This document shows positions 1 to 30,071 of a stretch of 64,000 nt of DNA, in pieces. Source of the stretch: a virus. The translations under genes and the position numbers were made by a program. The stretch spans positions 1-64,000 of the IMG/VR virus record IMGVR_UViG_3300032323_001417, one strand, 5' to 3'. Position 1 is the stretch's first letter, and every line of letters starts with the position of its first letter. Below the pieces are notes generated by a model, which was given only the letters and a program-made list of their open reading frames with translations, made no database searches and was not told the DNA's origin.

Positions 1-77
1 ACATAAAACTCTGGCATCTGCTTACTTGTAGGGATAGTCTGTGTGTATTCTACTGTAACGCCTTCTAATGTTTTCAT
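1..77 (-). CDS. Hypothetical protein, N-terminal part (runs off window), leaderless
   Basis: ATG at 77, MKTLEGVTVEYTQ..., open to window edge; 7 nt downstream of the -10 element. Confidence 0.55.
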   Translation of the reverse strand, partial: MKTLEGVTVEYTQTIPTSKQMPEFY

Positions 78-84
78 AGTTCGT

Positions 85-113
85 ATCCTACTACACTTTC
101 TTTGGAATGTCAA
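85..113 (-). promoter_or_regulatory. Canonical sigma-A promoter TTGACA-N17-TAGGAT
   Basis: Perfect -35 at 113-108, 17-nt spacer, -10 at 90-85. Confidence 0.7.
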
Positions 114-324
114 GTCTTGTTAGGTTATAAGCCAGGATTTCTTCTAGCCTCTGATATTCAGCTAATTCTTCTGAACCCTCTTCTGCAAACTCCCAATGTC
201 CAGTAGTTTTATTATAAATAGTTCCGTCACCCTCTTCTAGCATTACGTTGGTGGTTTCAGCATCTACCATGAAAGCTCCCCAGTCCTCGTCATAAACTAC
301 AACCCAATGATGTTGATAACTCAT
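91..324 (-). CDS. Hypothetical acidic protein
   Basis: ORF track; overlaps upstream stop (ATGA). Confidence 0.7.
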   Translation of the reverse strand: MSYQHHWVVVYDEDWGAFMVDAETTNVMLEEGDGTIYNKTTGHWEFAEEGSEELAEYQRLEEILAYNLTRLDIPKKV

Positions 325-488
325 ACTTCAAACTCCTTAAATGTATCTACTACTACTTGACATACATGATCAAGGTTAATAAGTGTTTTGCAAAAATCCA
401 GGTGGGTCAAAAGATTTTCCTGCAACTGTTCTCTAAGTAATTCTAGTGGTAGCACATCAAAGTGTACCTCATCTTGCCAAGTGTTCAT
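321..488 (-). CDS. Hypothetical protein (start revised to MNTWQDE)
   Basis: ATG at 488 coupled to the stop of 485-616; GGAG upstream. Confidence 0.6.
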   Translation of the reverse strand: MNTWQDEVHFDVLPLELLREQLQENLLTHLDFCKTLINLDHVCQVVVDTFKEFEV

Positions 489-616
489 ACTTCTACTTCT
501 CCTAAGTCCATTAGATATTCTTCTTTGCCACATTCTATGCAACTAAATACCATTTCATCTTCATACTCTAGAAAGGTAGCGTCACACATACAGCACTTAA
601 CCTTGTTCATCAACAT
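485..616 (-). CDS. Small Zn-ribbon protein (CCMC...CIEC), 43 aa, not in track
   Basis: Manual translation MLMNKVKCCMCDATF...CIECGKEEYL; fills the gap between neighbours. Confidence 0.65.
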   Translation of the reverse strand: MLMNKVKCCMCDATFLEYEDEMVFSCIECGKEEYLMDLGEVEV

Positions 617-617
617 A

Positions 618-800
618 CTATACCTCGTGTACGATTACGTCTTGTAGGTGCATAACTTCGGGGTCAATCTTGTAATAACTCAAAATGTTCTGTCTTGCTT
701 GTTCAATAATAAACTCATCAGATAAGTCTGGCTCATCAAAAGAAACACTTGTAATCATTACCATAGCCTCTAATACAAACTCTACATTATAGTTATACAT
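618..800 (-). CDS. Hypothetical protein
   Basis: ORF track; tight operon packing. Confidence 0.7.
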   Translation of the reverse strand: MYNYNVEFVLEAMVMITSVSFDEPDLSDEFIIEQARQNILSYYKIDPEVMHLQDVIVHEV

Positions 801-1027
801 TAGTTAATCTCCACTTCTAATCCGTGATACTCTAAAGAAATCATTGTCTGTTCTAAGTCAGCAGAGTCGTCACACTCATCATAGTAGCCAAGGTTCTTAA
901 AATGATTCCAAGCATCATCATTGTCAAATTCTGGGTTCTCTGCTACATACGCTTCCCAGTCTTTTTGATCTATCTTCATTGACCATTGTGATTCAAAAGT
1001 TCCTTGAAAGGTTCCTGTCAAATACAT
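800..1027 (-). CDS. Hypothetical acidic protein
   Basis: ORF track; TAATG coupling. Confidence 0.7.
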   Translation of the reverse strand: MYLTGTFQGTFESQWSMKIDQKDWEAYVAENPEFDNDDAWNHFKNLGYYDECDDSADLEQTMISLEYHGLEVEIN

Positions 1028-1284
1028 TACACTATCTCCAGTCTGTTCTTGGCAAAGAATAGGTCTGTGCCGTCTTCATCTTTAATTGAAATCTGTGCGG
1101 GTACATCAAATTTGTCAAGGAATAAATTATGTTCTATCTGCCATTCTTGATCTTTAACAAATTCAATCATTGCTTCGTGACTAATAGGATAACCATGAAT
1201 ACCATACTCACCTGTTGCCAACATCATTTTAATTAATGCCTCTTCTGAATAAATAATTTCTGTTGTTGCTACTAGATAGGTCAT
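1027..1284 (-). CDS. Hypothetical protein
   Basis: ORF track; coupled stop/start. Confidence 0.7.
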   Translation of the reverse strand: MTYLVATTEIIYSEEALIKMMLATGEYGIHGYPISHEAMIEFVKDQEWQIEHNLFLDKFDVPAQISIKDEDGTDLFFAKNRLEIV

Positions 1285-1451
1285 ACCTTTTTCTCCCTAA
1301 TTACTATTTGAACCATTTCTTCTGTGTTATAAAACTTCTTTACAAAATTATAAGCAGTTTCCCATTGTTCTAATTCAATGCCACCAACATTGTGTAATTC
1401 AACAAAGTGGTCTGCTAACTCACTTAGTAGTGGGTCTGTTACGTCAATCAT
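1281..1451 (-). CDS. Hypothetical protein (start revised to MIDVTDP)
   Basis: AAAGGA RBS before ATG 1451; the track start lies inside the promoter. Confidence 0.65.
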   Translation of the reverse strand: MIDVTDPLLSELADHFVELHNVGGIELEQWETAYNFVKKFYNTEEMVQIVIREKKV

Positions 1452-1592
1452 TTTTGTCCTTTTGTAGGTTGATACTTTGTATCCTATCACAGGGGTCTGA
1501 CATTTTTGCCCAGGCTATTCCAGAGGAGTTCTTAATTGTTCATAAATGACTAATAAGATAAACAGGGGGCGCGGCTCTCAGCTCGTGAGAGT

Positions 1593-1627
1593 GAGCAGTT
1601 TATAGTCTGGTTATGGTGCTCAGGACT
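1593..1627 (-). ncRNA. Putative H-type pseudoknot in 3' UTR (copy A)
   Basis: AGUC CU GAGCA N9 GACU AUAAAC UGCUC; paralog at 2821-2848 with a compensatory pair. Confidence 0.5.
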
Positions 1628-1684
1628 GTCCCCTTTATTTATTCTCCGTGGCTGTGGGAGTTTCTTCCGTTCGGTTGTGTCCTA

Positions 1685-2674
1685 CTAGGCGAAAGCAACT
1701 TCTTTCACAATGGAAAGTAGTTTGTTCTTTTCTGCTGTGATAACTGGGTCAAAGCCTGATGCACTTGCAAGGATTCCCTCGTTGTTGCCATTACGGGCAG
1801 AACGATACCAGTCAAGTCTTTCAGTCAATGTGTTAAAAGCACCCCAAGCAGTATTGTTAATCATTGAATTAGTATCTGATGCAAAAATCTCATCTAACAA
1901 TTCAATCTTGGTTTCCCACTTGGTCATTGCACCCTTTGCATCTTTCTTTGGCATTGGATAAGCCTTTTCAACAATCTTATTGAAAGTATCTTTTGTGATT
2001 TCCTTTTCAATAAGTTCTTGAGCCATTTTGTCAAAAGCATCCATGTAAGTATTAGCAAGACCCAATGCTTCACGAGCAACTAAGATACGACCCTCAAGTG
2101 TTGATGTGTGTCGCATCTTGAAAGACTGCTTAACACCACGAAGAGCCATGTCAAGAGTGTTAGCACACACAACACGAACAGGTGTTACTGATGCACGAAC
2201 AGCAAGTGAACCGTCATGTGATGTGTTTACAAGTAAGTAAGACTTAACAACATCTGCAACGCCACTTGGGTCAAGTACGGTCTCACGCTCAAGAGCAAGA
2301 GAACCAAATACAACACGACCATTCTTTAGTGAACCAGCGGTTTCCCAACGAGCACCGTCAAGAAGATTATCTGCAAAAGCAAATAGTTCTTCATTCTGTA
2401 AAGTCTGGTAACGCTCACCAACAACTGCTAGAACATCTGGGTGTCCGTCTTCTGGGTGGTCACGAACAACAAGAAAGTTAGATTTGCTTGATGTGTAATC
2501 TTCAGGTAGTTGAACATCTTCAAGACGTACATTCCAGTTTGATAAGTTTGCTATGTCCATAACTTCACTTGTGGTGTGCTCTTCTGTAACAACAGTTCCT
2601 AGACCATGCCAAGCAGGTTCACGAAATGAATACATAGAACCAACACCGTTTATAACTTCGACTGCATCAGCCAT
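1685..2674 (-). CDS. DUF932 (phage/plasmid TIGR03299-like) protein
   Basis: REPAWHGLG, ETAGSL, NTSHDGS, TPVRVVCANTL motifs typical of DUF932. Confidence 0.85.
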   Translation of the reverse strand: MADAVEVINGVGSMYSFREPAWHGLGTVVTEEHTTSEVMDIANLSNWNVRLEDVQLPEDYTSSKSNFLVVRDHPEDGHPDVLAVVGERYQTLQNEELFAFADNLLDGARWETAGSLKNGRVVFGSLALERETVLDPSGVADVVKSYLLVNTSHDGSLAVRASVTPVRVVCANTLDMALRGVKQSFKMRHTSTLEGRILVAREALGLANTYMDAFDKMAQELIEKEITKDTFNKIVEKAYPMPKKDAKGAMTKWETKIELLDEIFASDTNSMINNTAWGAFNTLTERLDWYRSARNGNNEGILASASGFDPVITAEKNKLLSIVKEVAFA

Positions 2675-2820
2675 TTTTTCTCCTATTAGGTAGTTTGTTT
2701 AATAGTCTTACTATAACACAAAGGTCTGACATTTCCTAATCTCATCAGACATTTCAGGGGCATTTTTTAATCTTCTTAAATAACGATTTGATAACGGGGC
2801 GCGGATCAAGCTTTGAGAGG

Positions 2821-2848
2821 GGGCAGTTTATTGTCAATGCCCAGGACT
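2821..2848 (-). ncRNA. Putative H-type pseudoknot in 3' UTR (copy B)
   Basis: AGUC CU GGGCA UU GACA AUAAAC UGCCC. Confidence 0.5.
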
Positions 2849-2867
2849 TTCCTACCTACTAGGAAAC

Positions 2868-3377
2868 CTAGTACCTTTCGTCTATTGAATCAATGTCTGC
2901 ATCAGATTCTAAAATCTCATACTTAGATTCATTAGAAGAGATTTCAATGTCAAAGTCATAGATGCTTAGGTCAGACACATCTTCATTAACTGGAATGGAA
3001 ACAGTTGCTTTGATTGTTACATTGAATTCAACTTCAACTTCTTTAGATAAATCAATACCAAAGATGTTTGCAATTTCAGTTGCGTGTTCTTCACCAATCT
3101 CATCAAAGTTCTCAACAAGGTATTCTTTTAACTTGTCTTGTGCTCGTGAGTTACGGTTGTTGGTTTCTTGCACTGCATCTAGTCTCCAGTAAGTTCTGGA
3201 AATGTCGTCTGCATTTTCTACTTCAAACTTTGAATCTGAAGGTGTGCCATAGTAGTAGCCCTTGCGTACTAAGATAGTTGCCTTTGGGTCATACGCTGGT
3301 GTTACTGCCACTTGGTCTGTCATTGGTGTTATAGTTGCTGGTATTCCGAATGTTGGCTCACTTGTTGTGAATTCCAC
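2868..3377 (-). CDS. Hypothetical protein
   Basis: GTG start with AAGGAG RBS; own promoter at 3411-3432. Confidence 0.75.
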   Translation of the reverse strand: MEFTTSEPTFGIPATITPMTDQVAVTPAYDPKATILVRKGYYYGTPSDSKFEVENADDISRTYWRLDAVQETNNRNSRAQDKLKEYLVENFDEIGEEHATEIANIFGIDLSKEVEVEFNVTIKATVSIPVNEDVSDLSIYDFDIEISSNESKYEILESDADIDSIDERY

Positions 3378-3379
3378 GT

Positions 3380-4174
3380 TTATTCTCCTTGTAGGTTGGT
3401 TGTTGAAACTAGTGTATCAGAGAGGTCTGACAATTCTTGCCATTCCTCTAATTCCGTGTCCCACTTGTATTTAGTGGTATCTATTGGGCAATCTTCAAAA
3501 GCATACTCAATGTCTTCATACTGACATTGACACTCTCTTTCTAATGCCTCGTAGTCTGCGTGGCTTGATGGAATGTCGTACTCATTACAGGCAATGTCTT
3601 CTCCACCTAAGAATGTGCAACTGCCACCCCAACCTTGCTCTTCCTCATACTCATAGTCAAACTCAAGAGTTGGATACTGTTCTGATAGTTTCATTAGAAC
3701 CTCACCAACAGGACTCCAAGCGGTTTGGAAATGGTACATAACAGAACCATCATCATTAACTGTTTTAATAGTGTTAGGATAATCATTATTATTATCTACT
3801 GCTACGTCCCACTTAGTTCCCCAGTTACGGCAGTTCCAATGATACCAGTCTTGGTCTTCTTTCATAGAGCGAACAAACTCTTGCATAAAAGATTCGCCAT
3901 CCATTTTGCCATCTTCATTTACTTTGATGTTCTTGTTACCCTTGAAAGTATCTGTTTCATAGTATGCTTCAAGGTCTGTTGGTTTTACAATGTTCCAAAA
4001 AGCAAATACAGGATTGTCATAGTGCTGTTCGTCAGCAACCCAAACAATTTCATTGTTTTCAAATTTGTGTTCAGGAAAATGTTTTACGAATGGCTGGTTA
4101 AGTTGTGCAACCATCTTATCTAATTCTGACTGTTCGCCAGATACAACTAATGTGTTAAATACCCAGTTTGGCAT
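3380..4174 (-). CDS. DUF1281/YubB-like ferredoxin-fold protein
   Basis: MPNWVFN, WYHWNCRNWGTKWD, FQTAWSP motifs. Confidence 0.75.
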   Translation of the reverse strand: MPNWVFNTLVVSGEQSELDKMVAQLNQPFVKHFPEHKFENNEIVWVADEQHYDNPVFAFWNIVKPTDLEAYYETDTFKGNKNIKVNEDGKMDGESFMQEFVRSMKEDQDWYHWNCRNWGTKWDVAVDNNNDYPNTIKTVNDDGSVMYHFQTAWSPVGEVLMKLSEQYPTLEFDYEYEEEQGWGGSCTFLGGEDIACNEYDIPSSHADYEALERECQCQYEDIEYAFEDCPIDTTKYKWDTELEEWQELSDLSDTLVSTTNLQGE

Positions 4175-4289
4175 TGTTACTTCTTTCTAGTAGGTTATGA
4201 TGAAATCATACCACAAGGGTCTGACATTTTCAGGGGCTCTTCTTAAACTTCTTAAATAAGTTATCCACAGGGGGCGCGGCTTAGCTCTG

Positions 4290-4363
4290 CGATCTGGATG
4301 GGACTTGAACCCACGACCTCCGCCGTGACAGGGCGGTGCTCTAACCAACTGAGCCACCAGACC
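4290..4363 (-). tRNA. tRNA-Asp(GTC), CCA not encoded
   Basis: Acceptor stem GGTCTGG/CCAGATC, D-arm, anticodon arm CCGCC-CTGTCAC-GGCGG, GGTTCAAGTC T-loop. Confidence 0.93.
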
Positions 4364-4447
4364 AAAGGTGTGCCAGGATTTAGATCTCTATCATTCAATC
4401 ACCAACAACCTGGCGGTATTGGCTACCTTTTAATTAATTGAGTTACC

Positions 4448-4924
4448 TTACCAAGAGGCTTGGTACTCAAAATAGTCGAACTTACTATTGAGGCATCTGT
4501 CAATAATACCAATAGTGTCATTCAAATCTCCAAAGTAATACTCATCATAGTTAGTAGAACCAAAGAAGAATCCACTACCTGTTGGCAATTCTTCTTCTGC
4601 TACTTCTGGATTAGCAATTACATTTATGCAAGTTTCTTTTAGAGTTTCTAAATCTTCTCTACGAACTGTAATTGGCTGACATTCATCAACACCATCTGCT
4701 AAGTTATTTACAAACCAATGATGAATCATGTTTGACTTACGCCAGTAACCCATTGGTACATCAACGGTAATTCCAGCAAAGCCAGTAGTGTCAATTACAT
4801 CTTCTAATTCAAGACTGCTGACAATTTCATTGAATAGAGGATTTATTGTGTCCTCATCAGTTTGACGATTAAAGTTGTGACGGTATACATACTCACTTGC
4901 ACGAAGGTACATGTCTAGTCCCAT
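4448..4924 (-). CDS. Conserved phage protein (MGLDMYL...YWRK...YQASW family)
   Basis: GGAG RBS before ATG 4924; motifs common in phage early regions. Confidence 0.75.
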   Translation of the reverse strand: MGLDMYLRASEYVYRHNFNRQTDEDTINPLFNEIVSSLELEDVIDTTGFAGITVDVPMGYWRKSNMIHHWFVNNLADGVDECQPITVRREDLETLKETCINVIANPEVAEEELPTGSGFFFGSTNYDEYYFGDLNDTIGIIDRCLNSKFDYFEYQASW

Positions 4925-4981
4925 TGTGGACTCCATTCTTTTGTAGGTAAGTTTATCTTAGCAGAGAGGTCTGACAGTTTT

Positions 4982-5016
4982 AAGGTGGGGTGCAAGGGTA
5001 AGAAACACCCCACCTA
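4982..5016 (-). terminator. Hairpin terminator
   Basis: AGGTGGGGTG/CACCCCACCT stem right after the stop at 5029. Confidence 0.55.
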
Positions 5017-5028
5017 AACTTGTCTTAA

Positions 5029-5184
5029 CTACTTAGCAGTAGTCCAACGGTCTTGACCATTTACATCAAGACGGATACGCATTGAGCCGTTAGCGTTCTT
5101 TACGACTTCCTGAACGATACCAGTTACTTTGCTCTTTGCTGTTACGAACTGTGAGCCAACAGTTGGGGCGATTGTCTTTGCCAT
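5029..5184 (-). CDS. Small basic beta-rich protein, 51 aa, not in track
   Basis: MAKTIAPTVGSQFVTAKSKVTGIVQEVV...; own promoter and terminator. Confidence 0.7.
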   Translation of the reverse strand: MAKTIAPTVGSQFVTAKSKVTGIVQEVVKNANGSMRIRLDVNGQDRWTTAK

Positions 5185-5283
5185 TTGCTTCTCTTTTCTT
5201 TGGGGGAATTGTTTCCCGTTGTTGTTATAGTAATACTATACCAGAAAGGTCTGACAAAATCAAATCCATTCAGGTAATTCCAG

Positions 5284-5299
5284 GGTGATAAAGATCACT
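5284..5299. promoter_or_regulatory. CRP/GlxR-like site
   Basis: GGTGA-TAAAGA-TCACT. Confidence 0.45.
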
Positions 5300-5348
5300 T
5301 CTTAAATGCTTGACAAATATGGGATCTTGGGGCGCGGCTTCGCAGCTC

Positions 5349-5477
5349 CTACACCCTTTCCCTTTCTCGCAGGTATTCAATGTAAATTTCAGTAGATGCC
5401 ATTTCACTCATTAGTCTATCTAACTTAGTAAATGTATCTTCTTCAATTACTTCTGGTTTCTTATTAAATAATTTCAT
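5349..5477 (-). CDS. Hypothetical protein (start revised to MKLFNKK)
   Basis: ATGA coupling with 5474-5623. Confidence 0.55.
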   Translation of the reverse strand: MKLFNKKPEVIEEDTFTKLDRLMSEMASTEIYIEYLRERERV

Positions 5478-5623
5478 AGCCATTCTGCTAAATCTCCATC
5501 TGCTATTTCTGAATAGTCCATACCTTGTGATTCTGCAATTGCTTCCCACAATTGTTCTTCTGTGTAGTTTCCATCTGGATACCACTCTGTTAAAATACCG
5601 TATAAATCTTTCATCTTACTCAT
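5474..5623 (-). CDS. Small acidic protein, 49 aa, not in track
   Basis: MSKMKDLYGILTEWYPDG...; TAATG coupling. Confidence 0.6.
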   Translation of the reverse strand: MSKMKDLYGILTEWYPDGNYTEEQLWEAIAESQGMDYSEIADGDLAEWL

Positions 5624-5961
5624 TATGCAAATACCTTTCCATACAATTCAACTGTGCTACCGTCATCTAAATCGGTAAGTAGATTGTTTACTAAATCTAA
5701 TACAACTGTCTTATCAAAATTGTTACCAATTTCTGAACGGTTAATTGCATAGATACCAAAACCAGTTTCATCTAAAACATAGTCTTTAATCAGGTGTGAG
5801 ATAACCATACGGGTAAAGTATGAATAGTCACCCTTGCGTGGCTGTGCGTGTACCAATGCATCAATTAAATCATTTTCCCAATTTGATTCACCCCAATGTG
5901 AATACAAGACGGTTAATGATTCTGTTCCATCATCAAATACGAAATTAATTCTTGCACCCAT
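5623..5961 (-). CDS. Conserved phage hypothetical protein (MGARINF...LYSHWG)
   Basis: ORF track; operon context. Confidence 0.75.
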   Translation of the reverse strand: MGARINFVFDDGTESLTVLYSHWGESNWENDLIDALVHAQPRKGDYSYFTRMVISHLIKDYVLDETGFGIYAINRSEIGNNFDKTVVLDLVNNLLTDLDDGSTVELYGKVFA

Positions 5962-5962
5962 T

Positions 5963-6079
5963 TTAGTAACCTGCTTCCTTTAACATTTTTTCAATTGCTT
6001 GCAATTCTTCGGTAGACAATTTCTCAATTGCCTTTTCATCTATAACACCCTCAAATAAGTTTATTAGTAGTTCACTCAT
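5963..6079 (-). CDS. Small helical protein, 38 aa, not in track
   Basis: MSELLINLFEGVIDEKAIEKL...; GAGGA RBS. Confidence 0.6.
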   Translation of the reverse strand: MSELLINLFEGVIDEKAIEKLSTEELQAIEKMLKEAGY

Positions 6080-6080
6080 T

Positions 6081-6332
6081 TTATTCCTCTTCCCAACTAG
6101 CAAAATTATTCATAGTGCAAAAACAATCGTTACACATACCAGAAATAAATCTTTCACGAATACCTGCATCATAGTCTTTCAATACATCTTGACAATAAGC
6201 ACCTTGATTGTATGCAAATAATTGTTCTGATGAAATAGAAACGGTTTTGGTTGTGCCACAATCAGGGCAAGGTAATGATGTAACGACATAACGGTCATTC
6301 ATCACTTTCATTGGATTAGTCAAAGTGAACAT
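6081..6332 (-). CDS. Zn-binding hypothetical protein (CPDC...CNDC)
   Basis: ORF track; GAAAGGA RBS; promoter at 6363-6384. Confidence 0.75.
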   Translation of the reverse strand: MFTLTNPMKVMNDRYVVTSLPCPDCGTTKTVSISSEQLFAYNQGAYCQDVLKDYDAGIRERFISGMCNDCFCTMNNFASWEEE

Positions 6333-6463
6333 AGTGTTCCTTTCGTTTGTAGGTATGATTTCATCATAGCATAAGGGTCTGACATTTTCTCAGGGGGTCC
6401 AGGCTATTTTCTTAAAAGTCTTAAAAAAGTTATCCACAGGGGGGCGCGGCTCCCCAGCTGCCC

Positions 6464-6601
6464 CTACTTGCCGTCAGTCCACCTAGAACTATTTACAAAA
6501 TCGGAATTAGAATTCTTTTTCCATTTTATTGCATCAAGAAATGCTAAGGCTGGTAGAAATAATAAACTTGCTAGAAATAATAGAAACAGAAATTTTATCA
6601 T
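6464..6601 (-). CDS. Small membrane/secreted protein, 45 aa, not in track
   Basis: MIKFLFLLFLASLLFLPALAFL hydrophobic N-terminus; TAATG coupling. Confidence 0.55.
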   Translation of the reverse strand: MIKFLFLLFLASLLFLPALAFLDAIKWKKNSNSDFVNSSRWTDGK

Positions 6602-6732
6602 TAGTCAAACAATTCCTTTTTGTGTTTTGGTTTACGCTTGTATGCTTTTTTATTTTTGTGTGGAACGGCTGCATTACTCCTACGCAACTCAAGCCTAGCC
6701 CTAAGTTGTTCAGGTGTTGCTATAAATTTCAT
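6601..6732 (-). CDS. Small basic protein with ArfA-like C-terminal motif, 43 aa, not in track
   Basis: MKFIATPEQLRARLELRRSNAAVPHKNKKAYKRKPKHKKELFD; ATGA coupling. Confidence 0.65.
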   Translation of the reverse strand: MKFIATPEQLRARLELRRSNAAVPHKNKKAYKRKPKHKKELFD

Positions 6733-7013
6733 TCTTCCTCCCATTCAGGTTCAGATACCCAAGCATCTAAACGATGACCCTCAACAATTGCAGAGGCAGG
6801 TGCATAGTTACTACCACGCCACGAAATTCCTTGAGGCAATTCAATTTCTGCAAAGTAGTCCTCATTCCAAATTGCGTTAATAGCATCTATGCAAGGCTGT
6901 ACCATTGAGGACGGTACTGGAGGATAGCAATTGTATTGCAAGTGTAGGTTAATCTGTGCCTCAAGTGGCATTGTATCCATAGTGGATAATTCAGTTGCAA
7001 AGTTTAGTCCCAT
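6729..7013 (-). CDS. Hypothetical protein (start MGLNFAT)
   Basis: ORF track; promoter at 7046-7067. Confidence 0.75.
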   Translation of the reverse strand: MGLNFATELSTMDTMPLEAQINLHLQYNCYPPVPSSMVQPCIDAINAIWNEDYFAEIELPQGISWRGSNYAPASAIVEGHRLDAWVSEPEWEEE

Positions 7014-7069
7014 TTTATTTCTCATTTCTTGTAGGTAGGGTATTTATTCTATCAGATAGGTCTGACATT

Positions 7070-7261
7070 TTAGAATGGTGGGAATGACCAACAAGGCACA
7101 AATTCCTCATAGGTCTTGTTTATTCTTTTGATAACTATTTCAGCAAACATTGGTTCAACGCCTGACGATGCAGACTTGACGGGCTGACCAATGTATTCTA
7201 AATACATCTTGACATCTTTTGAAGGAATGTCTAACTGCTTAGCAATTTCATAGACTCTCAT
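7070..7261 (-). CDS. Stand-alone translation initiation factor IF-2 N-terminal domain protein
   Basis: MRVYEIAKQLDIPSKDV...VKSASSGVE matches the IF2_N pattern RVYELAKELG..SK...V.SASS; GGAGG RBS. Confidence 0.75.
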   Translation of the reverse strand: MRVYEIAKQLDIPSKDVKMYLEYIGQPVKSASSGVEPMFAEIVIKRINKTYEEFVPCWSFPPF

Positions 7262-7410
7262 AGTGCCTCCTCAAAGTCAGGGGATTCAAAGGTGTATCCA
7301 TACACTCTTTCAAATTCATCAACAGTCATCTTACCCTTGTAGGTATCACAGCACACAACCTGTTCAGCAAACATTTCTTGCTCACAGAAACAACAAATAA
7401 ATTCTGTCAT
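7258..7410 (-). CDS. Small Cys-rich protein, 50 aa, not in track
   Basis: MTEFICCFCEQEMFAEQVVCCDTYKG...; GAGGA RBS; promoter at 7435-7456. Confidence 0.65.
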   Translation of the reverse strand: MTEFICCFCEQEMFAEQVVCCDTYKGKMTVDEFERVYGYTFESPDFEEAL

Positions 7411-7538
7411 TTTATTTCCTCTCTTTATAAGAACACTCTAGCATAGGGGTCTGACAATTTTTTCAGGGCGATTATCCACAACTTCTTAACAGCCTGTGGA
7501 TAACGGGGGCGCGGCTCTTTTTAGCTGAGCCTGGTGTG

Positions 7539-8075
7539 CTAGGCTGCACTCCCCCTATACACAACCCAGATTAGTGCTTGAATAGTGCGAGGTGTCATTG
7601 CAGTTTCTTGAGCAATTTTTTCAATAGCCTCAGACAGTTGGCTGTAGTCTGTTTTGTTAGGGCTGTCTTTTGTTAGACCTGCTGATCGCATCATCCAAAT
7701 GTCAATCGTGATTGCATTTTCATCACCTGCAATGTTGCGAGCAAATGAATTTGTTTTCTTTCCATTAAGTGCATCGAAACCAATTTCTAAAGCACGTTGA
7801 GCCATTTTAAGATTGTTAGGTAGGCAACGCATGGTGTCATCGCCATGAGCGAATCTAAGTGCCTGACGAACGTTAGTTGACCAACGCTGACGAGGTGAGA
7901 ACGCTGACACAATACTAGCCGCTTGTTCAAGCGATACATCCATGCCTCGTGTCTTGTAAATGTCTACAATCTCATGGGCAACGGCTTCAGCATCTGCATA
8001 CCATTGGGTTGCTTGTTCGATCTGTGATGCCTTAGCACTCTTAACAATTTGGCGGTAGGTATTTTCGTAGTTCAT
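7539..8075 (-). CDS. Phage protein with possible HhH-GPD/glycosylase-like fold
   Basis: WY...SAFSPRQRW..N, GKKTNSF..NI.G....TIDIWM motifs; start revised to MNYENTY. Confidence 0.6.
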   Translation of the reverse strand: MNYENTYRQIVKSAKASQIEQATQWYADAEAVAHEIVDIYKTRGMDVSLEQAASIVSAFSPRQRWSTNVRQALRFAHGDDTMRCLPNNLKMAQRALEIGFDALNGKKTNSFARNIAGDENAITIDIWMMRSAGLTKDSPNKTDYSQLSEAIEKIAQETAMTPRTIQALIWVVYRGSAA

Positions 8076-8326
8076 GTCTATCTCATTTCTAGTAGGTATC
8101 TCTGATACTAGCACACACCCCTGACAAAAACAAGACTATTAGACATTATTTTTATAAAATTTTCAGGGCAATTTCAGGGGATTTCTTAACTATCGTAACA
8201 AGGGTTATCCACAGAGCCGCGCCCCCTCGGGCGTGTCGCAGCTGTCTAGTCTGTGTATTTATCCACTAGCAAATAAATAAAAGTGGCAAGGGATAAAATT
8301 AAAACCCAAGAATAAAAACTATTCAT

Positions 8327-8479
8327 TTAGTATTCACCTCTCAACACAAATGCAAACGAGTGTTTTCCTAAATCAAAAATCAGGGAAGTATTTTTGGTTT
8401 CTGTTTTTTTATTGTAGTAAGTTGAGAAACTAATTCCAAGAATAAAAGTTCCGTCAATTTTATTATGTACAAATCTCAT
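8327..8479 (-). CDS. Hypothetical protein, 50 aa, not in track
   Basis: MRFVHNKIDGTFILGISF...; TAATG coupling. Confidence 0.55.
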   Translation of the reverse strand: MRFVHNKIDGTFILGISFSTYYNKKTETKNTSLIFDLGKHSFAFVLRGEY

Positions 8480-8661
8480 TACACACCTACCGCATCTAAA
8501 AACTTTTGTTCATCAAAGTTTGGATTATCGCTTGCAAATAAATCTGCAAAATCTTCTGCAATACTTTTTACAAGTGAAGAAATTAAAATGTTGTCTTGTC
8601 CTGCTTCTGCATAAGAATTAAAAATCTTTGCGGTTGCTATGTAGTCTTTGCGTGTCATCAT
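8479..8661 (-). CDS. Conserved phage hypothetical protein (MTRKDY...DNPNFD..KF)
   Basis: ORF track, start revised. Confidence 0.7.
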   Translation of the reverse strand: MMTRKDYIATAKIFNSYAEAGQDNILISSLVKSIAEDFADLFASDNPNFDEQKFLDAVGV

Positions 8662-8662
8662 T

Positions 8663-8830
8663 TTATTTTCCTGCCTTAGATAGTTCAAATTCGATTGCTA
8701 ACTTTGTGTAGGCTTGTTCCCACATTCTTTTATTAGCCTTTAGTTGTGTAACGCTTACGACTAAGTAAGCCAAAGCCCCAGCCAATAGGCTAGGTAGTAA
8801 GATGATTAGTGCTATTTGTATTAGTGACAT
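8663..8830 (-). CDS. Small membrane protein, 55 aa, not in track
   Basis: MSLIQIALIILLPSLLAGALAYLVV transmembrane helix; GAAAGG RBS; own promoter. Confidence 0.65.
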   Translation of the reverse strand: MSLIQIALIILLPSLLAGALAYLVVSVTQLKANKRMWEQAYTKLAIEFELSKAGK

Positions 8831-8885
8831 TGTATGCCCTTTCTTGTTGTTGTTAGTTTGATTCTAGCATAGGGGTCTGACAGTT

Positions 8886-9035
8886 TTACCTGTAGACACG
8901 CCTAGTCAAAAGTTGGATTTGTAGATTGTAGTAGTCAATCATTCGTTGATTAGTTGGGTCGTGCTTAAGGATTAACTCTAAGCCGTTTACTGCATCTACT
9001 AGCAGTCTTGCATTCTTGATTTTAGTGTAAGCCAT
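8886..9035 (-). CDS. Hypothetical protein, 49 aa, not in track
   Basis: MAYTKIKNARLLVDAVNG...; GAAAGG RBS; promoter at 9069-9090. Confidence 0.65.
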   Translation of the reverse strand: MAYTKIKNARLLVDAVNGLELILKHDPTNQRMIDYYNLQIQLLTRRVYR

Positions 9036-9215
9036 TTTGGTCTACCTTTCGTTTTATCTTATGCTTTCAGCATACACTAGGGGTCTGACATTTTTGGTAT
9101 TTCAGGGCGTGTCTAAGATGAACAGTAGGTAAACAATAATTAACAAGTTATCCACAGGATTCCAGGGCATTTCTTAACAATCGTAACAAAAGTTATCCAC
9201 AGGGGCGCGGCTCGT

Positions 9216-9231
9216 TCGAACATTTGTTCTA
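9216..9231. promoter_or_regulatory. LexA (SOS) box, Gram-positive/actinobacterial type
   Basis: TCGAAC-ATTT-GTTCTA versus consensus TCGAAC-N4-GTTCGA. Confidence 0.6.
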
Positions 9232-9245
9232 TGATGTACATCACA
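9230..9245. promoter_or_regulatory. CRP/GlxR-like site
   Basis: TATGA-TGTACA-TCACA versus TGTGA-N6-TCACA. Confidence 0.5.
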
Positions 9246-9310
9246 AAAATAGTGTCTCAAATAGTGAGATTCAGGTAGAATTTGTCAGTCAGGTGTGGTA
9301 AGTTATTACT

Positions 9311-9546
9311 ATAAAGAAAATTAAATAGTGGTTAAAAGGGATTAGGGCTTAGAAAAAAGTTTAGACCGCAAGTCTAAATGTGATTGAAAGTCCAAGTCAA
9401 ACGGAGTCTACGCTGACAGAGGTCAGTATTCACCGTCTCAGTTTCACGCTAGTGTCCTAGTCCCCTTTAACCATTATTAAATCGCTTAGTGTGAGCCTAG
9501 CAAATAAGCAACGAAAGTTGATGAGCCTAGCAAATAAAACTAAGCA
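9311..9546 (+). ncRNA. Putative structured non-coding RNA or long 5' leader
   Basis: Promoter at 9283-9304; 25-bp helix 9324-9348/9454-9478 with 3 G-U pairs; inner hairpins; second symmetric domain 9484-9545; no ORF. Confidence 0.65.
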
Positions 9547-9563
9547 TAACGAAAGGATTCATT

Positions 9564-9686
9564 ATGAATGAATTACTAATTGAAGACATCACAGATGAAG
9601 AATGTTTTGACTGTGGAGATAAGCTAACATCATGGGAATTTATTTTTTGTGTTATGTGTGATGGAATGGAACAATACGAAATCTAA
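9564..9686 (+). CDS. Zn-finger microprotein (CxxC-x11-CxxC), 40 aa, not in track
   Basis: MNELLIEDITDEECFDCGDKLTSWEFIFCVMCD; GAAAGGA RBS; paralog of 10335-10481. Confidence 0.7.
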   Translation: MNELLIEDITDEECFDCGDKLTSWEFIFCVMCDGMEQYEI

Positions 9687-9879
9687 AAAAGTCCAGGGGA
9701 TTTTAAAATTATCGTAACAAAGATAATAAAAAAATTCCGCGCCTCGTTTTCCACAGGTTGTACACATCTGTGGATAAAAGAGTTCATCTACTGTTAACCT
9801 ACGACACGCCCTATTTGGCAGAAATTGTCAGGGATGTATGCAATACTAAAGGTATTAGATAAACGAAAGAGAGAACAAA

Positions 9880-10086
9880 ATGAACTACTGTTTCTTTTGC
9901 GGTTGGGATACCGAAACCCAATTCAATGTCTGCTATACCTGCAAGGCTATAACAGATGTTGAATACACCTACACCCCTGACGTGTGCGGTGATGATGCTT
10001 GCTATGTAGTAGGCAACGAACTAAATCTTGACGGAGATTGCAATCACCTAACAGAATTCTACCAACTAGCAGACCTGACAGCCTAA
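9880..10086 (+). CDS. Cys-rich Zn-binding protein
   Basis: CFFC...CYTC; promoter at 9826-9847. Confidence 0.7.
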   Translation: MNYCFFCGWDTETQFNVCYTCKAITDVEYTYTPDVCGDDACYVVGNELNLDGDCNHLTEFYQLADLTA

Positions 10087-10140
10087 AAACTGTCAGACCT
10101 ACCTGCTAGATTAAAACTACCTACTAAGAAAGAGAACAAA

Positions 10141-10329
10141 ATGTTTTTATTCAATCTACAAGCCCCACTAGTATTCATTGCAGTATTCTCATTACCTGCA
10201 CTACTACTAGAACTACAACTACTAGTGATTGGCTTTAACTTTATGTCTGCCAATGTGATGATAGCAACCGTTGCTATTGGTCTACTATCTGCAATAGGTG
10301 CAGTAGTTATCGAAATGATTGAGGGGTAA
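10141..10329 (+). CDS. Small membrane protein (2 TM)
   Basis: Hydrophobic ORF; promoter at 10091-10112. Confidence 0.7.
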   Translation: MFLFNLQAPLVFIAVFSLPALLLELQLLVIGFNFMSANVMIATVAIGLLSAIGAVVIEMIEG

Positions 10330-16766: not shown

Positions 16767-18212
16767 ATGTCTAGAAAATTTTTAACAAGTATTGATCTAA
16801 ATCGTAATGAATTGCAAAACGGTGTTATCCATAATTTGGCTACAGATCCAGGTACTGGAGTTGCTGGTCAACTTTATTTTAATACCGTTGACAACACCCT
16901 AAAAATCTATAACGGAATGGGATGGGAAGCTGTTGGCTCTACTGAATTTATTGGAGACGCAGTAAATGATCTACTTGATAGTGGAACTGGAATTTCGTTA
17001 AACTATAACGATGCTGGTAACTCTCTTACAATTGCAAACACTGGCGTAACTAGCATTGCTGGTACAGCTAACGAAGTATCTGTAAGCGGATCTGCTGGTG
17101 CAGTAACAGTAAGTCTTCCAAACTCTATTACAGTAGATGTGACTGGTGCTTTAACTGGTAATGCAAGTACTGCTAGCACTTTGCAGACACCTAGATCTAT
17201 TGGTCTTGGTGGATCTTTAAGTGGTAGTGTTAGTTTTGATGGAAGTCAGAACGTAACAATTACAGCAGATATCGTAGCAGATTCAGTTGCTCTTGGTGCA
17301 GATACAACTGGTGATTATGTAGCAGGTGCAAGTGCATCTGGTGCAGGTATCAGTGTAACTGGTTCAGGTGGTGAAGGTTCAACTCTAACTATTTCTAACA
17401 CTGGTGTTACATCTCTTTCAGGAACAGCTAATGAAGTAACTGTTTCAGCATCTGCTGGAGCAATTACAATTGGTCTTCCAGATGATGTAACAATCGGAGG
17501 AAATCTTGGTGTAACTGGAAATCTAACTGTAAGCGGAAGCGTAACAACTCTAAATACAGAAACTTTGCTAGTTGAGGATAATCAAATTACCCTTAATAGC
17601 AATGTAACTGGAGTTCCTGCAGCAAATGCAGGTCTTGAAGTTGAGCGTGGTGATTCAACCAATGCTTCTTTAATTTGGAATGAATCATCTGATAAATGGT
17701 CAGCTGGACTTCTTGGTAGCGAAACTGCTATCTCTCTTGAAGGTCACGTCCATGCAACATCTGATATAACTGGATTACAGGAGTATGTTGAAGATACAGT
17801 TGGCACAATGCTAACAGACTCTTCAACAGTTGATTTCACATATTCAGATAATTCTGGAAGTGCTGGAACATTCACTGCTGGTATCATTACAGCTTCAACA
17901 AGCTATTTGACAACTGGTAGTGGTCTTGCTGTTGATATTTCTTCTGTAGAGTCAAAGTTAATAACTGATGGATTCCCAAAGAAATATGCAGCTAATAACA
18001 CATCGCTAACATCAACTAGTGGAGTATGTACCTGGACTGTAACACACAACCTTGCAACTAAGGATGTAACAGTTCAAGTATATGAAGTTGCTGCTGATTA
18101 TAATCAGGTAGAAGTAGATGTACAACATACATCAACATCTGCTATAACTATTAAAATTAATAGTGCAACAACAATTGCTGCTGACACATATCGTGTTGTA
18201 GTAATTGGATAA
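16767..18212 (+). CDS. Tail fibre/structural protein
   Basis: G/S/T-rich repeats GVTS..GTANEV.VS.SAGA; AGGAGG RBS. Confidence 0.7.
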   Translation: MSRKFLTSIDLNRNELQNGVIHNLATDPGTGVAGQLYFNTVDNTLKIYNGMGWEAVGSTEFIGDAVNDLLDSGTGISLNYNDAGNSLTIANTGVTSIAGTANEVSVSGSAGAVTVSLPNSITVDVTGALTGNASTASTLQTPRSIGLGGSLSGSVSFDGSQNVTITADIVADSVALGADTTGDYVAGASASGAGISVTGSGGEGSTLTISNTGVTSLSGTANEVTVSASAGAITIGLPDDVTIGGNLGVTGNLTVSGSVTTLNTETLLVEDNQITLNSNVTGVPAANAGLEVERGDSTNASLIWNESSDKWSAGLLGSETAISLEGHVHATSDITGLQEYVEDTVGTMLTDSSTVDFTYSDNSGSAGTFTAGIITASTSYLTTGSGLAVDISSVESKLITDGFPKKYAANNTSLTSTSGVCTWTVTHNLATKDVTVQVYEVAADYNQVEVDVQHTSTSAITIKINSATTIAADTYRVVVIG

Positions 18213-28944: not shown

Positions 28945-29361
28945 ATGTCTATGAATGAAGTGGTTTTGATAGACATTGATGGAACAGTAGCTCATAGATG
29001 TGATAGGGGCATCTATGATTTTAGCAAGGTTGGATCAGATATACCAGATAAAAACATTGTAGAAATAGCTGAGTCACTTTGGAAAAATAGTAAGACAATA
29101 ATATTTATAACTGGTCGTGAAGATTCCTGCTATGAAGAAACTTACAAGTGGTTGGTAGAAAACTGTCCTCCATTTTCTAAGCTATATATGCGTAAAACTG
29201 GCGATGCTAGAAAAGATCATGAGGTTAAAAAAGAAATTTATGAAAATTATATTAAAAATAAGTTTAACGTTCTTTGCGTCTTAGACGATAGACAGTCAGT
29301 TGTTGATATGTGGAGAAGTCTTGGACTAACATGTCTACAAGTTAATTATGGAGACTTTTAG
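28945..29361 (+). CDS. HAD-family phosphatase (PNK phosphatase-like domain)
   Basis: DIDGT, ITGR, LYMR..GD.RKD..VK, DDR. Confidence 0.85.
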   Translation: MSMNEVVLIDIDGTVAHRCDRGIYDFSKVGSDIPDKNIVEIAESLWKNSKTIIFITGREDSCYEETYKWLVENCPPFSKLYMRKTGDARKDHEVKKEIYENYIKNKFNVLCVLDDRQSVVDMWRSLGLTCLQVNYGDF

Positions 29362-30071
29362 TGTATAAAGGAAAAAAGCTACATCATTTTTATCACATAG
29401 GCTCCTCTGGAAAATGGCTTCAGCCTTTATCTGAACACATCCACGCTTTAAGAAGGTACGGTCTTTTAGAAAATTTAGATAGCATAAATTTTGGAATCAT
29501 TGGACCAAAAGACAATAGAAAAGATGTAAAAGATTATCTACACAAGGAGCTTAATGATTTTAACATTGTTGCAGAAGCTGATAGTGGGTGGGAGCAAGTA
29601 ACAATTAATCCAATGCATGAATTCTCTTTAAAAAATGATGGATATATTTTTTATGCTCACACAAAGTCTTCCAATAATCATAATATTTTTGGGGCAAAGC
29701 ATAGAAGATCTATGACATATTTTAATGTTGTAAATTGGAAAGATTGTGTAGAAAAATTAAATGAAGGATATGCCTTGGCTGGTACTCATTATTGTCAGAT
29801 GCATTTAGTTAAAGATGCGTATGGAAATGAAATGGATATTCCAGGGGAAACAAGGTGGGAAAATATTAAAAAGTATGACGGATTCTTTTTAGGAAACTTT
29901 TGGTGGACAACCACTGAAGCAATAAAAACTTTAAAGCCTTGTGAAAACAACTATAGACAAGATGCCGAGTTTTGGATAGCACAAATAAAGTTGGAAAATA
30001 AGATGGCTTATGATTTTTATCCACATCAAGTTTTTACAGAGCATGAAGACAAGTTTGTAACTAGATGGTAA
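29361..30071 (+). CDS. Putative glycosyltransferase-like protein
   Basis: YAHTKS, GNFWW, R..AEFWI motifs. Confidence 0.5.
   Translation: MYKGKKLHHFYHIGSSGKWLQPLSEHIHALRRYGLLENLDSINFGIIGPKDNRKDVKDYLHKELNDFNIVAEADSGWEQVTINPMHEFSLKNDGYIFYAHTKSSNNHNIFGAKHRRSMTYFNVVNWKDCVEKLNEGYALAGTHYCQMHLVKDAYGNEMDIPGETRWENIKKYDGFFLGNFWWTTTEAIKTLKPCENNYRQDAEFWIAQIKLENKMAYDFYPHQVFTEHEDKFVTRW

Follow-up and report, generated by a model that had tools for sequence, protein, structure and literature searches.

T4-type phages contain PeSL (promoter-early stem-loop) cassettes, in which a hairpin and an early promoter are repeated between small early ORFs and the content of which differs between related phages. The titrating locus datA is defined by an IHF site and by the stimulated ATP hydrolysis of DnaA. 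In E. coli, perfect DnaA boxes bind DnaA-ATP and DnaA-ADP alike, and DnaA-box complexes can stop a transcribing RNA polymerase (asnC). Consensus boxes are also present near DnaA-regulated promoters, as in the autoregulation of dnaA and at lambda pR and pO, on which DnaA acts and where a phage uses the host initiator as a transcription factor (PMC3985674). Eight DnaA boxes are conserved among T5-like phages, in a non-coding portion of the DNA that is injected first, and the role suggested for them in the injection stop, a tethering of the entering DNA to membrane-bound DnaA, is itself only a proposal (bioRxiv 10.1101/866236).

The locus described here belongs to an uncultured phage, the record of which is 101,664 bp long; the window examined is its first 64,000 bp. 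Its cassettes vary in content between relatives as the PeSLs do, the host phylum and promoter type are different, and to our knowledge DnaA boxes are not known in PeSLs. Like datA and other titrating clusters, the phage has several high-affinity boxes apparently away from an origin, and many of them when set against small Actinomycetes chromosomes that may resemble that of the host, but they extend over 5.5 kb and keep register with promoters, unlike datA. The T5 first-step-transfer region is similar in having about eight boxes family-wide in the non-coding DNA of a large lytic phage, beside small early genes and likewise away from the replication genes, whereas its boxes are arranged as pairs 3 bp apart inside long inverted repeats, half of the boxes being off-consensus, and those found here stand in promoter cassettes and 11-bp arrays (bioRxiv 10.1101/866236). 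In comparison with lambda pR and pO, the use of the host initiator as a transcription factor is proposed here from sequence, and it would concern many PafBC-type promoters of a lytic-looking actinophage, with perfect boxes 24–135 bp upstream and in arrays (PMC3985674). The literature searched did not yield any account of arrays of DnaA boxes within promoter cassettes of actinophages.

Results

The phage and its predicted host

The phage encodes WhiB, which is known as an actinophage marker (PMC10202952), and an actinobacterial-type FtsZ, and from these two proteins we infer that it infects actinobacteria. When FtsZ was used as a pointer to the host lineage, it confirmed the phylum but not the lineage, as its identity to nearly all FtsZ proteins of the 301 Actinomycetes genomes compared was near-uniform at ~60%. 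The phage has its own genes for a DnaB-like helicase, primase, DnaE and RecA, and no recognisable replication initiator was found in it. Pfam DnaA domains were also not found in the phage, which argues against a phage-encoded DnaA.

Perfect DnaA boxes are clustered and intergenic

The initial annotation had reported eight perfect DnaA boxes between 4261 and 9777, all of them intergenic, together with near-matches at 9747 and 9758 and one further box in a CDS at 30017, and all of these were reproduced. Exact matches to TTATCCACA were present in the whole window at 4261, 6430, 7472, 8205, 9148, 9193 and 30017 on the plus strand and at 7495 and 9769 on the minus strand, the 30017 box being inside ORF 29361–30071. 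The enrichment over a shuffled background that had been proposed as a check was also seen, because these 9 matches compare with 0.85 expected and none of the 100 dinucleotide shuffles of the window reached 9, the maximum being 4. The region 4001–10000 alone contains 8 against 0.08 expected from a first-order Markov model (Poisson P = 4e-14). The whole record has 10, of which only that at 99080 (minus strand) lies beyond the window, and thus the remaining ~95 kb outside the 4261–9777 cluster holds just two (30017 and 99080). The eight clustered boxes are all outside the accepted ORFs and the tRNA, the chance of which is 5e-5 given that 29% of 4001–10000 is intergenic. The near-match at 9747 is TTTTCCACA, a variant allowed by the DnaA consensus, and with the eight exact boxes it makes nine TTWTNCACA-consensus boxes in 4–10 kb; the one at 9758 is TTGTACACA, and both form a triple with the 9769 box at 11-bp spacing.

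The boxes are part of promoter cassettes

The cassettes follow a common order on the transcribed strand, namely a GC hairpin/tag, a slot with one or two DnaA boxes, TTAAGAA and CCCTGAAA words, and a TGTCAG-N10-TAnnnT promoter. The genome contains 13 exact TGTCAGACC cores, each with an extended -10 after it; 11 of these cores map to 1494–9082 and are on the minus strand. The phage promoters show the TGTC(g/a)g-N10-TAnnnT geometry without a -35 element, which is that of the PafBC-dependent promoters of mycobacteria with the motif tGTCgg-N10-tA-N3-T (PMC8635444); the phage core is TGTCAGACC.

Each of the eight clustered boxes lies 24–111 bp upstream of a TGTCAG element. The perfect box at 4261–4269 (plus strand; TGTGGATAA on the transcribed minus strand) is 43 bp upstream of the TGTCAG at 4218–4226, which belongs to a PafBC-type promoter (4195–4226, minus strand; TGTCAGACC followed by a TG-extended -10) that drives ORF 3380–4174. 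This box is abutted by a GC tag (4270–4280; a G-run and GGCGCGGC), which can contribute to a hairpin on both strands and separates the box from the 3' end of tRNA-Asp (4289–4363, minus strand). The box at 6430–6438 (plus strand) is 54 bp upstream of the TGTCAG at 6376–6384 and abuts the GC tag at 6439–6450. An inverted perfect pair (7472–7503; 7472 plus, 7495 minus) flanks TTAAGAA at 24 and 47 bp upstream of the TGTCAG at 7448–7456, and a GC tag (7505–7515) is next to its 7495 member. The box at 8205–8213 (plus strand), 87 bp upstream of the minus-strand TGTCAG (8121–8126) that drives the DUF7178 gene (7539–8114), stands beside a GC tag (8215–8227) that is inverted here and forms part of a hairpin.

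At the divergence hub, the left side contains two perfect boxes 45 bp apart (9148 and 9193; 9148–9201, plus strand), which are 66 and 111 bp upstream of the leftward promoter element (TGTCAGACC; 9082–9090, minus strand); a GC tag (9202–9211) abuts the 9193 box, and three TGTT-initiated units with 10–11-bp spacing are present between the proximal box and the promoter. The triple array at 9747–9777 (TTTTCCACA, TTGTACACA and a perfect minus-strand box), with a GC word at 9737–9743 beside it, has its members 79, 68 and 57 bp upstream of the plus-strand TGTCAG (9826–9831) of the rightward promoter (9826–9850, plus strand), in which an extended -10-like element follows. The two sides are split by ~550 bp comprising a promoter, a non-coding stretch and a small ORF. 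The earlier observation that the boxes mostly abut the GC motif applied to 5/8 (4261, 6430, 7495, 8205 and 9193), with a gap of 0–2 nt, but not to the other 3/8.

Spacing and conservation of the boxes in related phages

Across lineages, the box-to-TGTCAG distances range from 24 to 135 bp and cluster near 43, 54, 66, 78, 90, 101 and 112 bp, and the proximal boxes are oriented toward the promoter. When only the nearest box was taken from six lineages, the distances were phased at an 11-bp period (n = 15, R = 0.66, P < 0.001; the lineages are related and the samples non-independent), whereas phasing in the window alone was not significant (P = 0.07–0.15). Seven of the 13 exact TGTCAGACC promoters have no box, and in the orthologous cassettes of the contigs L029 and L035 the box is gone and the promoter is kept.

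Conservation in related phages, on which the initial annotation had made its claim depend, was observed, as the boxes are kept in about 20 related metagenomic contigs. About 17 contigs of 76–90% nucleotide identity have the same cassettes and boxes. Five contigs at ~60% protein identity are without the GCCGCGCC tag and contain 6–12 consensus boxes with 2-bp spacers (11-bp register) between back-to-back promoters, and a further 2–4 boxes before the next early promoters. In the more distant L017, L023 and L032, the interval between TGTCAG promoters contains a GC tag with a single box or a pair next to it. The number of hub boxes thus varies from 1 (L023) to 12 (L045), and a box touches the GC tag in every clade although the tag sequence differs by clade. 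At the level of single sites, the 4261 box is kept in 12/14 unique orthologous cassettes, being replaced in L029 and L035, the 6430 box is invariant in 13/13 unique orthologous sequences while the adjoining spacer columns are variable, and the 7472/7495 pair changes only to TTTTCCACA, TTATGCACA or ATATCCACA. Of the 27 possible one-mismatch variants, those that predominate in the early regions of these relatives, which are related and hence non-independent sequences, are the four that TTWTNCACA allows; elsewhere in the phage they do not predominate.

The dnaA-dnaN spacers of four small Actinomycetes genomes, the kinship of which to the host is inferred only via WhiB, FtsZ and low GC, contain the same 9-mer in a 10–11-bp register. 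Three complete Actinomycetes chromosomes of 1.3–1.4 Mb, taken for comparison, have 6, 17 and 8 perfect boxes against 10 in the phage.

Discussion

Predicted role of DnaA at the early promoters

We propose, with a probability of roughly 45% for the reading as a whole, that the 9-mers are genuine sites to which host DnaA would bind, and that the bound DnaA forms anchors modulating the early transcription units of this actinobacterial phage. The most likely role predicted for the boxes is to tie early gene expression to the host replication state. Host DnaA would sit on high-affinity anchors within modular early-gene control cassettes, in each of which the GC hairpin/tag would lie at the end of the preceding unit. 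From these anchors DnaA would probably oligomerise toward the promoter, or over the divergence hub, in steps of 11 bp, and would raise or lower the firing of the adjacent early units. Early expression would then depend on the host DnaA pool. Because the promoters presumably work without a box, DnaA would be a modulator and not a required factor. The earlier suggestion that DnaA acts on early promoters as a cell-cycle sensor fared unevenly: box position, orientation and ~11-bp phasing fit the action on promoters, although the window by itself does not give significant phasing, and the sensor part is weaker, since perfect boxes that in E. coli bind both nucleotide states look more like permanent anchors and would be poor sensors alone. 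The boxes are far upstream (about -50 to -140), and their position does not by itself suggest a simple occlusion or contact model. The contact with the GC tag (0–2 nt) is more constant than the promoter distance, and the coupling could be to the upstream hairpin instead. The phage DNA would, as it replicates, probably also titrate DnaA, as the perfect boxes of the phage are as numerous as those of a whole 1.3-Mb chromosome. If DnaA binds, a widespread freshwater actinobacterial phage family would read or drain the host initiator at its first transcription units, the same units that carry DNA-damage (PafBC)-type promoters of the host kind, and this would clearly exemplify a lytic phage that couples its early expression to the host replication status. 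Since the streamlined hosts have only a handful of such sites per chromosome, the DnaA balance could in that case be shifted by even a single phage genome.

Alternative explanations

The divergence hub (9.1–9.8 kb) may instead be the phage origin, where host DnaA on the array would load the phage DnaB-like helicase, the two divergent promoters would aid unwinding and the boxes of the other cassettes would be spread copies or helpers; we consider this possible but unlikely. Such an origin would suit a phage that has replication genes yet no recognisable initiator, and no repeats or iterons that would make a convincing rival origin were found next to the helicase and primase genes. The cumulative GC-skew minimum is near 8 kb, but the skew switches at the point where gene orientation also changes. 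Clustering of the oriC type is seen in the triple at 9747–9777 and the 9148/9193 pair, and the 6–12 boxes of the relatives' hubs are in the 11-bp register as in chromosomal origins. Chromosomal oriC (PMC8287927) shares with the phage the clustered boxes, the 2-bp spacers and the 9-mer and register of the small-actinobacterial dnaA-dnaN spacers, whereas the phage boxes are without an adjoining DnaA-trio run or AT-rich unwinding element. By the DnaA-trio criterion of the basal unwinding system (a run of >= 3; PMC8287927), the largest run within 16 bp of any of the nine consensus boxes in 4–10 kb was 2, as against a run of four trios at a distance of 14 nt from a box in the control oriC regions, and runs of 3 occurred in the relatives at about chance level. 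The hub is 61–66% AT compared with the genome mean of 64.5% and no top AT-rich window falls within it; it is interrupted in the window, and its box number is inconstant between lineages. The earlier view that the locus is not a simple origin is supported for the window by the lack of a trio run of >= 3, the lack of AT excess and the spread of boxes over cassettes. The dense hub arrays of the relatives look origin-like as much as operator-like, and because they are oriC-like, with 6–12 boxes, an origin there stays a live rival.

A combined reading, which we regard as improbable, is that the hub is an origin without trios or DUE, opened by divergent PafBC-type transcription and DnaA, while the dispersed perfect boxes drain the DnaA of a streamlined host; the same short sequence would then serve both to initiate replication of the phage and to shut off that of the host.

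That the boxes act mainly as a DnaA sink, multiplying with the phage genome and draining DnaA until new chromosome rounds halt, appears quite improbable. The "sponge" of the initial annotation is quantitatively plausible (10 boxes against 6–17, and up to 12 consensus boxes in the arrays of relatives); the register with promoters is left unexplained by it. A sink needs neither promoter orientation and register nor confinement to hub-proximal cassettes, and some relatives have lost single boxes and show no others gained in exchange.

It is very doubtful that the box and the abutting GC hairpin insulate consecutive early units, with DnaA blocking read-through RNA polymerase. The close contact of tag and box in every clade, despite the differing tags, would agree with such a block, and the tag regions do fold into hairpins; however, these form on both strands and are often more stable on the non-transcribed one, three of the eight boxes have no adjoining tag, and the ~11-bp register with the downstream promoter is unexpected under insulation.

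A T5-like tethering of the entering DNA to membrane-bound DnaA, or the reading of the boxes by a phage-encoded protein, is highly unlikely in spite of the eight boxes kept by T5-like phages (bioRxiv 10.1101/866236) and the place of the boxes at the inner border of a small-gene block. Other contigs continue straight across the ends of the record, which are thus no guide to the physical ends. The T5 layout is absent, as the boxes are separated by 2 bp or by tens of bp and are not surrounded by long inverted repeats. A DnaA-like DNA-binding domain was not found in any phage protein, and both the range of variants and the spacing within arrays are as expected for DnaA itself.

Other features of the region

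Megablast of 4000–10200 gave no match among deposited phages, and Rfam on the same region returned only tRNA. The tag-plus-box composite had 11 scattered matches in bacterial genomes, all of high GC and at about chance level, and these pointed neither to a host nor to a source of the GC tag. An AT-rich non-coding gap at 98.6–99.3 kb with a box pair (99080/99102), at first sight a better origin, was rejected because L016 and L019 have no such boxes in the orthologous gap. The block of small, presumably early genes extends over ~12 kb, and the boxes are located at its inner border.

Exact DnaA boxes are enriched between the early genes

The initial annotation had reported eight perfect DnaA boxes between 4261 and 9777, and an exact-match scan agreed with it in every detail. 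The high-affinity 9-mer TTATCCACA, which fits the DnaA-box consensus TTWTNCACA, occurs in the window at 4261, 6430, 7472, 8205, 9148, 9193 and 30017 on the plus strand and at 7495 and 9769 on the minus strand. These nine copies compare with 0.85 expected from dinucleotide shuffles, in which the maximum was 4, and the excess over a shuffled background was thus confirmed. Over the full record the count is 10, with the one copy beyond the window at 99080 on the minus strand. The region spanning 4001–10000 contains eight copies against 0.08 expected under a first-order Markov model (P = 4e-14), and all eight are intergenic as had been described, the intergenic share of this region being 29% (P = 5e-5). 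The near-matches noticed earlier at 9747 (TTTTCCACA) and 9758 (TTGTACACA) are real and form a triple of 11-bp spacing with the box at 9769.

The boxes are probably read by the DnaA of an actinobacterial host

The IMG/VR virus record is 101,664 bp long with terminal repeats of 123 bp, and the window is its first 64 kb. Small ORFs run leftward on the minus strand from ~9.2 kb, and this block extends to ~99.3 kb because other contigs cross the ends of the record uninterrupted. Rightward from 9.5 kb lie structural genes and those for ribonucleotide reductase, DnaB-like helicase, primase, DnaE-type polymerase, RecA, WhiB and FtsZ. WhiB was taken as a marker for actinobacteria and their phages (PMC10202952), and the phage FtsZ is ~60% identical to that of 291 of the 301 sampled Actinomycetes genomes. 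Members of this sample flagged as unpublished underlie none of the conclusions. The host is therefore an actinobacterium, and we infer a low-GC freshwater one. A domain search of the phage-encoded proteins found no DnaA domain; the phage supplies a replisome without a recognisable initiator.

When the 27 one-mismatch variants of the box were counted, the four allowed by TTWTNCACA dominated the early regions of the relatives and not the rest of the phage (9, 15, 1 and 4 copies in the distant clade). The dnaA–dnaN spacers of four small (1.3–1.4 Mb) Actinomycetes genomes contain this 9-mer as well, with a triple in 10–11-bp register among the copies. The variant spectrum, these spacers and the lack of a DnaA-like domain in the phage together argue that the boxes are very probably read by host DnaA.

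The box is an optional module of a PafBC-type promoter cassette

The repeated control unit of the early genes, read on the transcribed strand, consists of a GC-rich tag GCCGCGCCCC that often closes a hairpin, a slot for one or two boxes, TTAAGAA words with a CCCTGAAA word, and lastly TGTCAGACC, separated by 7 bases from a TG-extended -10, after which come a conserved leader and the start codon. Its promoter geometry, TGTCAG-N10-TAnnnT, is that of PafBC-dependent promoters, for which the motif tGTCgg(N10)tA(N3)T is known (PMC8635444). Exact promoter cores number 13 genome-wide, with a consensus box upstream of six and none at the other seven, and two variant-core promoters are served by the boxes at 8205 and 9747–9777. 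As seven promoters do without a box, and two related contigs (L029 and L035) have other sequence in place of the 4261 box while retaining the promoter, the box is an optional module of the cassette.

The box-to-TGTCAG distances cluster near 43, 54, 66, 78, 90, 101 and 112 bp, and the proximal boxes are oriented as TGTGGATAA toward the promoter. Using the nearest box only in six separate lineages (n = 15, some promoters being orthologous), 11-bp phasing was found with R = 0.66 (P < 0.001 against uniform distances); it was not significant in the window alone. We favour, tentatively and with a probability of about 0.45, the boxes as candidate DnaA anchors that may modulate early PafBC-type transcription units. 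Lambda pR/pO (PMC3985674) and the T5 injection-stop region with its conserved box set (10.1101/866236) are among the closest precedents.

Nearly all early ORFs in 1–10200 share a conserved leader in which ACCTAC(A/T)A precedes a run rich in purines, the latter lying a few bases ahead of the start codon. The early block also contains a tRNA-Asp (GTC) at 4289–4363, the 3' end of which leads straight to the 4261 cassette at its GC tag and box, and a protein of 63 aa that is a free-standing IF2 N-terminal domain, at 7070–7261 (Pfam IF2_N, E = 2e-7). PafBC is part of the actinobacterial proteasome gene neighbourhood, which makes noteworthy a weak proteasome-subunit match (E = 1e-4) of a 187-aa protein encoded on the minus strand at 99326–99889 of the record (17326–17889 of the related contig L037).

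The divergence hub is the conserved core

Scanning viral contigs for tag plus box yielded 27, 19 of them related to the window: 16 that share its cassettes at 76–90% nucleotide identity, and three more distant. Single or paired boxes next to a GC tag between TGTCAG promoters also occur in the more distant contigs L017, L023 and L032. The boxes proved to be conserved in related phages, orthologous alignments showing no change in the 6430 box across 13 unique sequences while nearby spacer columns vary, and retention of the 4261 box in 12 of 14. In a 96.7-kb relative, five of the eight exact boxes lie within the hub/early-promoter region. A distant clade of five contigs, located through a DUF7178 protein (~60% identity), has other tags in place of the GCCGCGCC tag, 6–12 consensus boxes between back-to-back promoters, mostly with 2-bp spacers, and 2–4 further boxes ahead of the next early promoters. 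The box arrays of the window and its relatives thus identify the divergence hub, at ~9.1–9.8 kb between the back-to-back leftward and rightward promoters, as the conserved core, and in both the box number in further cassettes falls with distance from it. At the sequence level, the cassette grammar is conserved and its words are lineage-specific. The GCCGCGCC tag and TTAAGAA words are replaced in the distant clade (L043–L047) by GGTCGGCAC or GGCTCGGGG as tag, together with a GTCAAnTTACGACAC word, the order of the parts being the same.

Alternative roles of the boxes

The concentration of boxes at the hub could mark a phage replication origin, which we consider unlikely. By the published criterion, an unwinding module requires at least three DnaA-trios no more than 16 bp from a box (PMC8287927); the control dnaA–dnaN spacers have a four-trio run 14 nt after the box and then a TA-rich stretch. 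At the nine consensus boxes in 4–10 kb no trio run exceeds 2, and the AT content of the hub (61–66%) is near the genome mean (64.5%); the chromosomal-origin signature is therefore missing. The earlier view that this is not a simple origin stands to that extent, but phage origins need not follow that signature. Iterons beside the replication genes were looked for and none was found. A 750-bp non-coding, TA-repeat-rich gap where plus- and minus-strand blocks converge (98580–99330; L037 16580–17330) contains a box pair at 99080/99102, and was rejected as an origin site since the pair is not conserved in the related contigs L016 or L019. A 12-base TA-rich word of this gap recurs, possibly by chance, in the control oriC regions, within their putative unwinding stretch.

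The DnaA sponge proposed earlier survives in part. The phage has 10 exact boxes against 6, 17 and 8 in three complete small chromosomes, so that replicating phage DNA could plausibly titrate DnaA irrespective of the main function of the boxes; a DnaA sink as that main function is quite improbable. A box acting as a roadblock coupled to the tag hairpin is very unlikely. The boxes, said to mostly abut the GC motif, do so in five of eight cases. The least probable reading is a T5-like tether, despite the T5 precedent, or a phage-encoded reader, given the DnaA-free domain search.

Other features of the hub

Between the box at 9148 and the leftward hub promoter, 9112–9147 contains three TGTT-initiated 9-mers that repeat every 10–11 bp in phase with the box, with a GACACGCCC word after them; the layout (box, near-box, two TGTT units) is the same in the relatives. 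These units may represent weak DnaA sites in a graded array, or else the site of another factor. A 12-bp perfect palindrome TGATGTACATCA in a CRP-like TGTGA-N6-TCAnA context (9228–9246) lies upstream of the rightward TGTCAG promoter at ~9283 and is kept in the relatives. Downstream of this promoter is an ORF-free stretch (9311–9560) that matched no Rfam family; it divides the hub of this phage, the hub being compact in the distant relatives.
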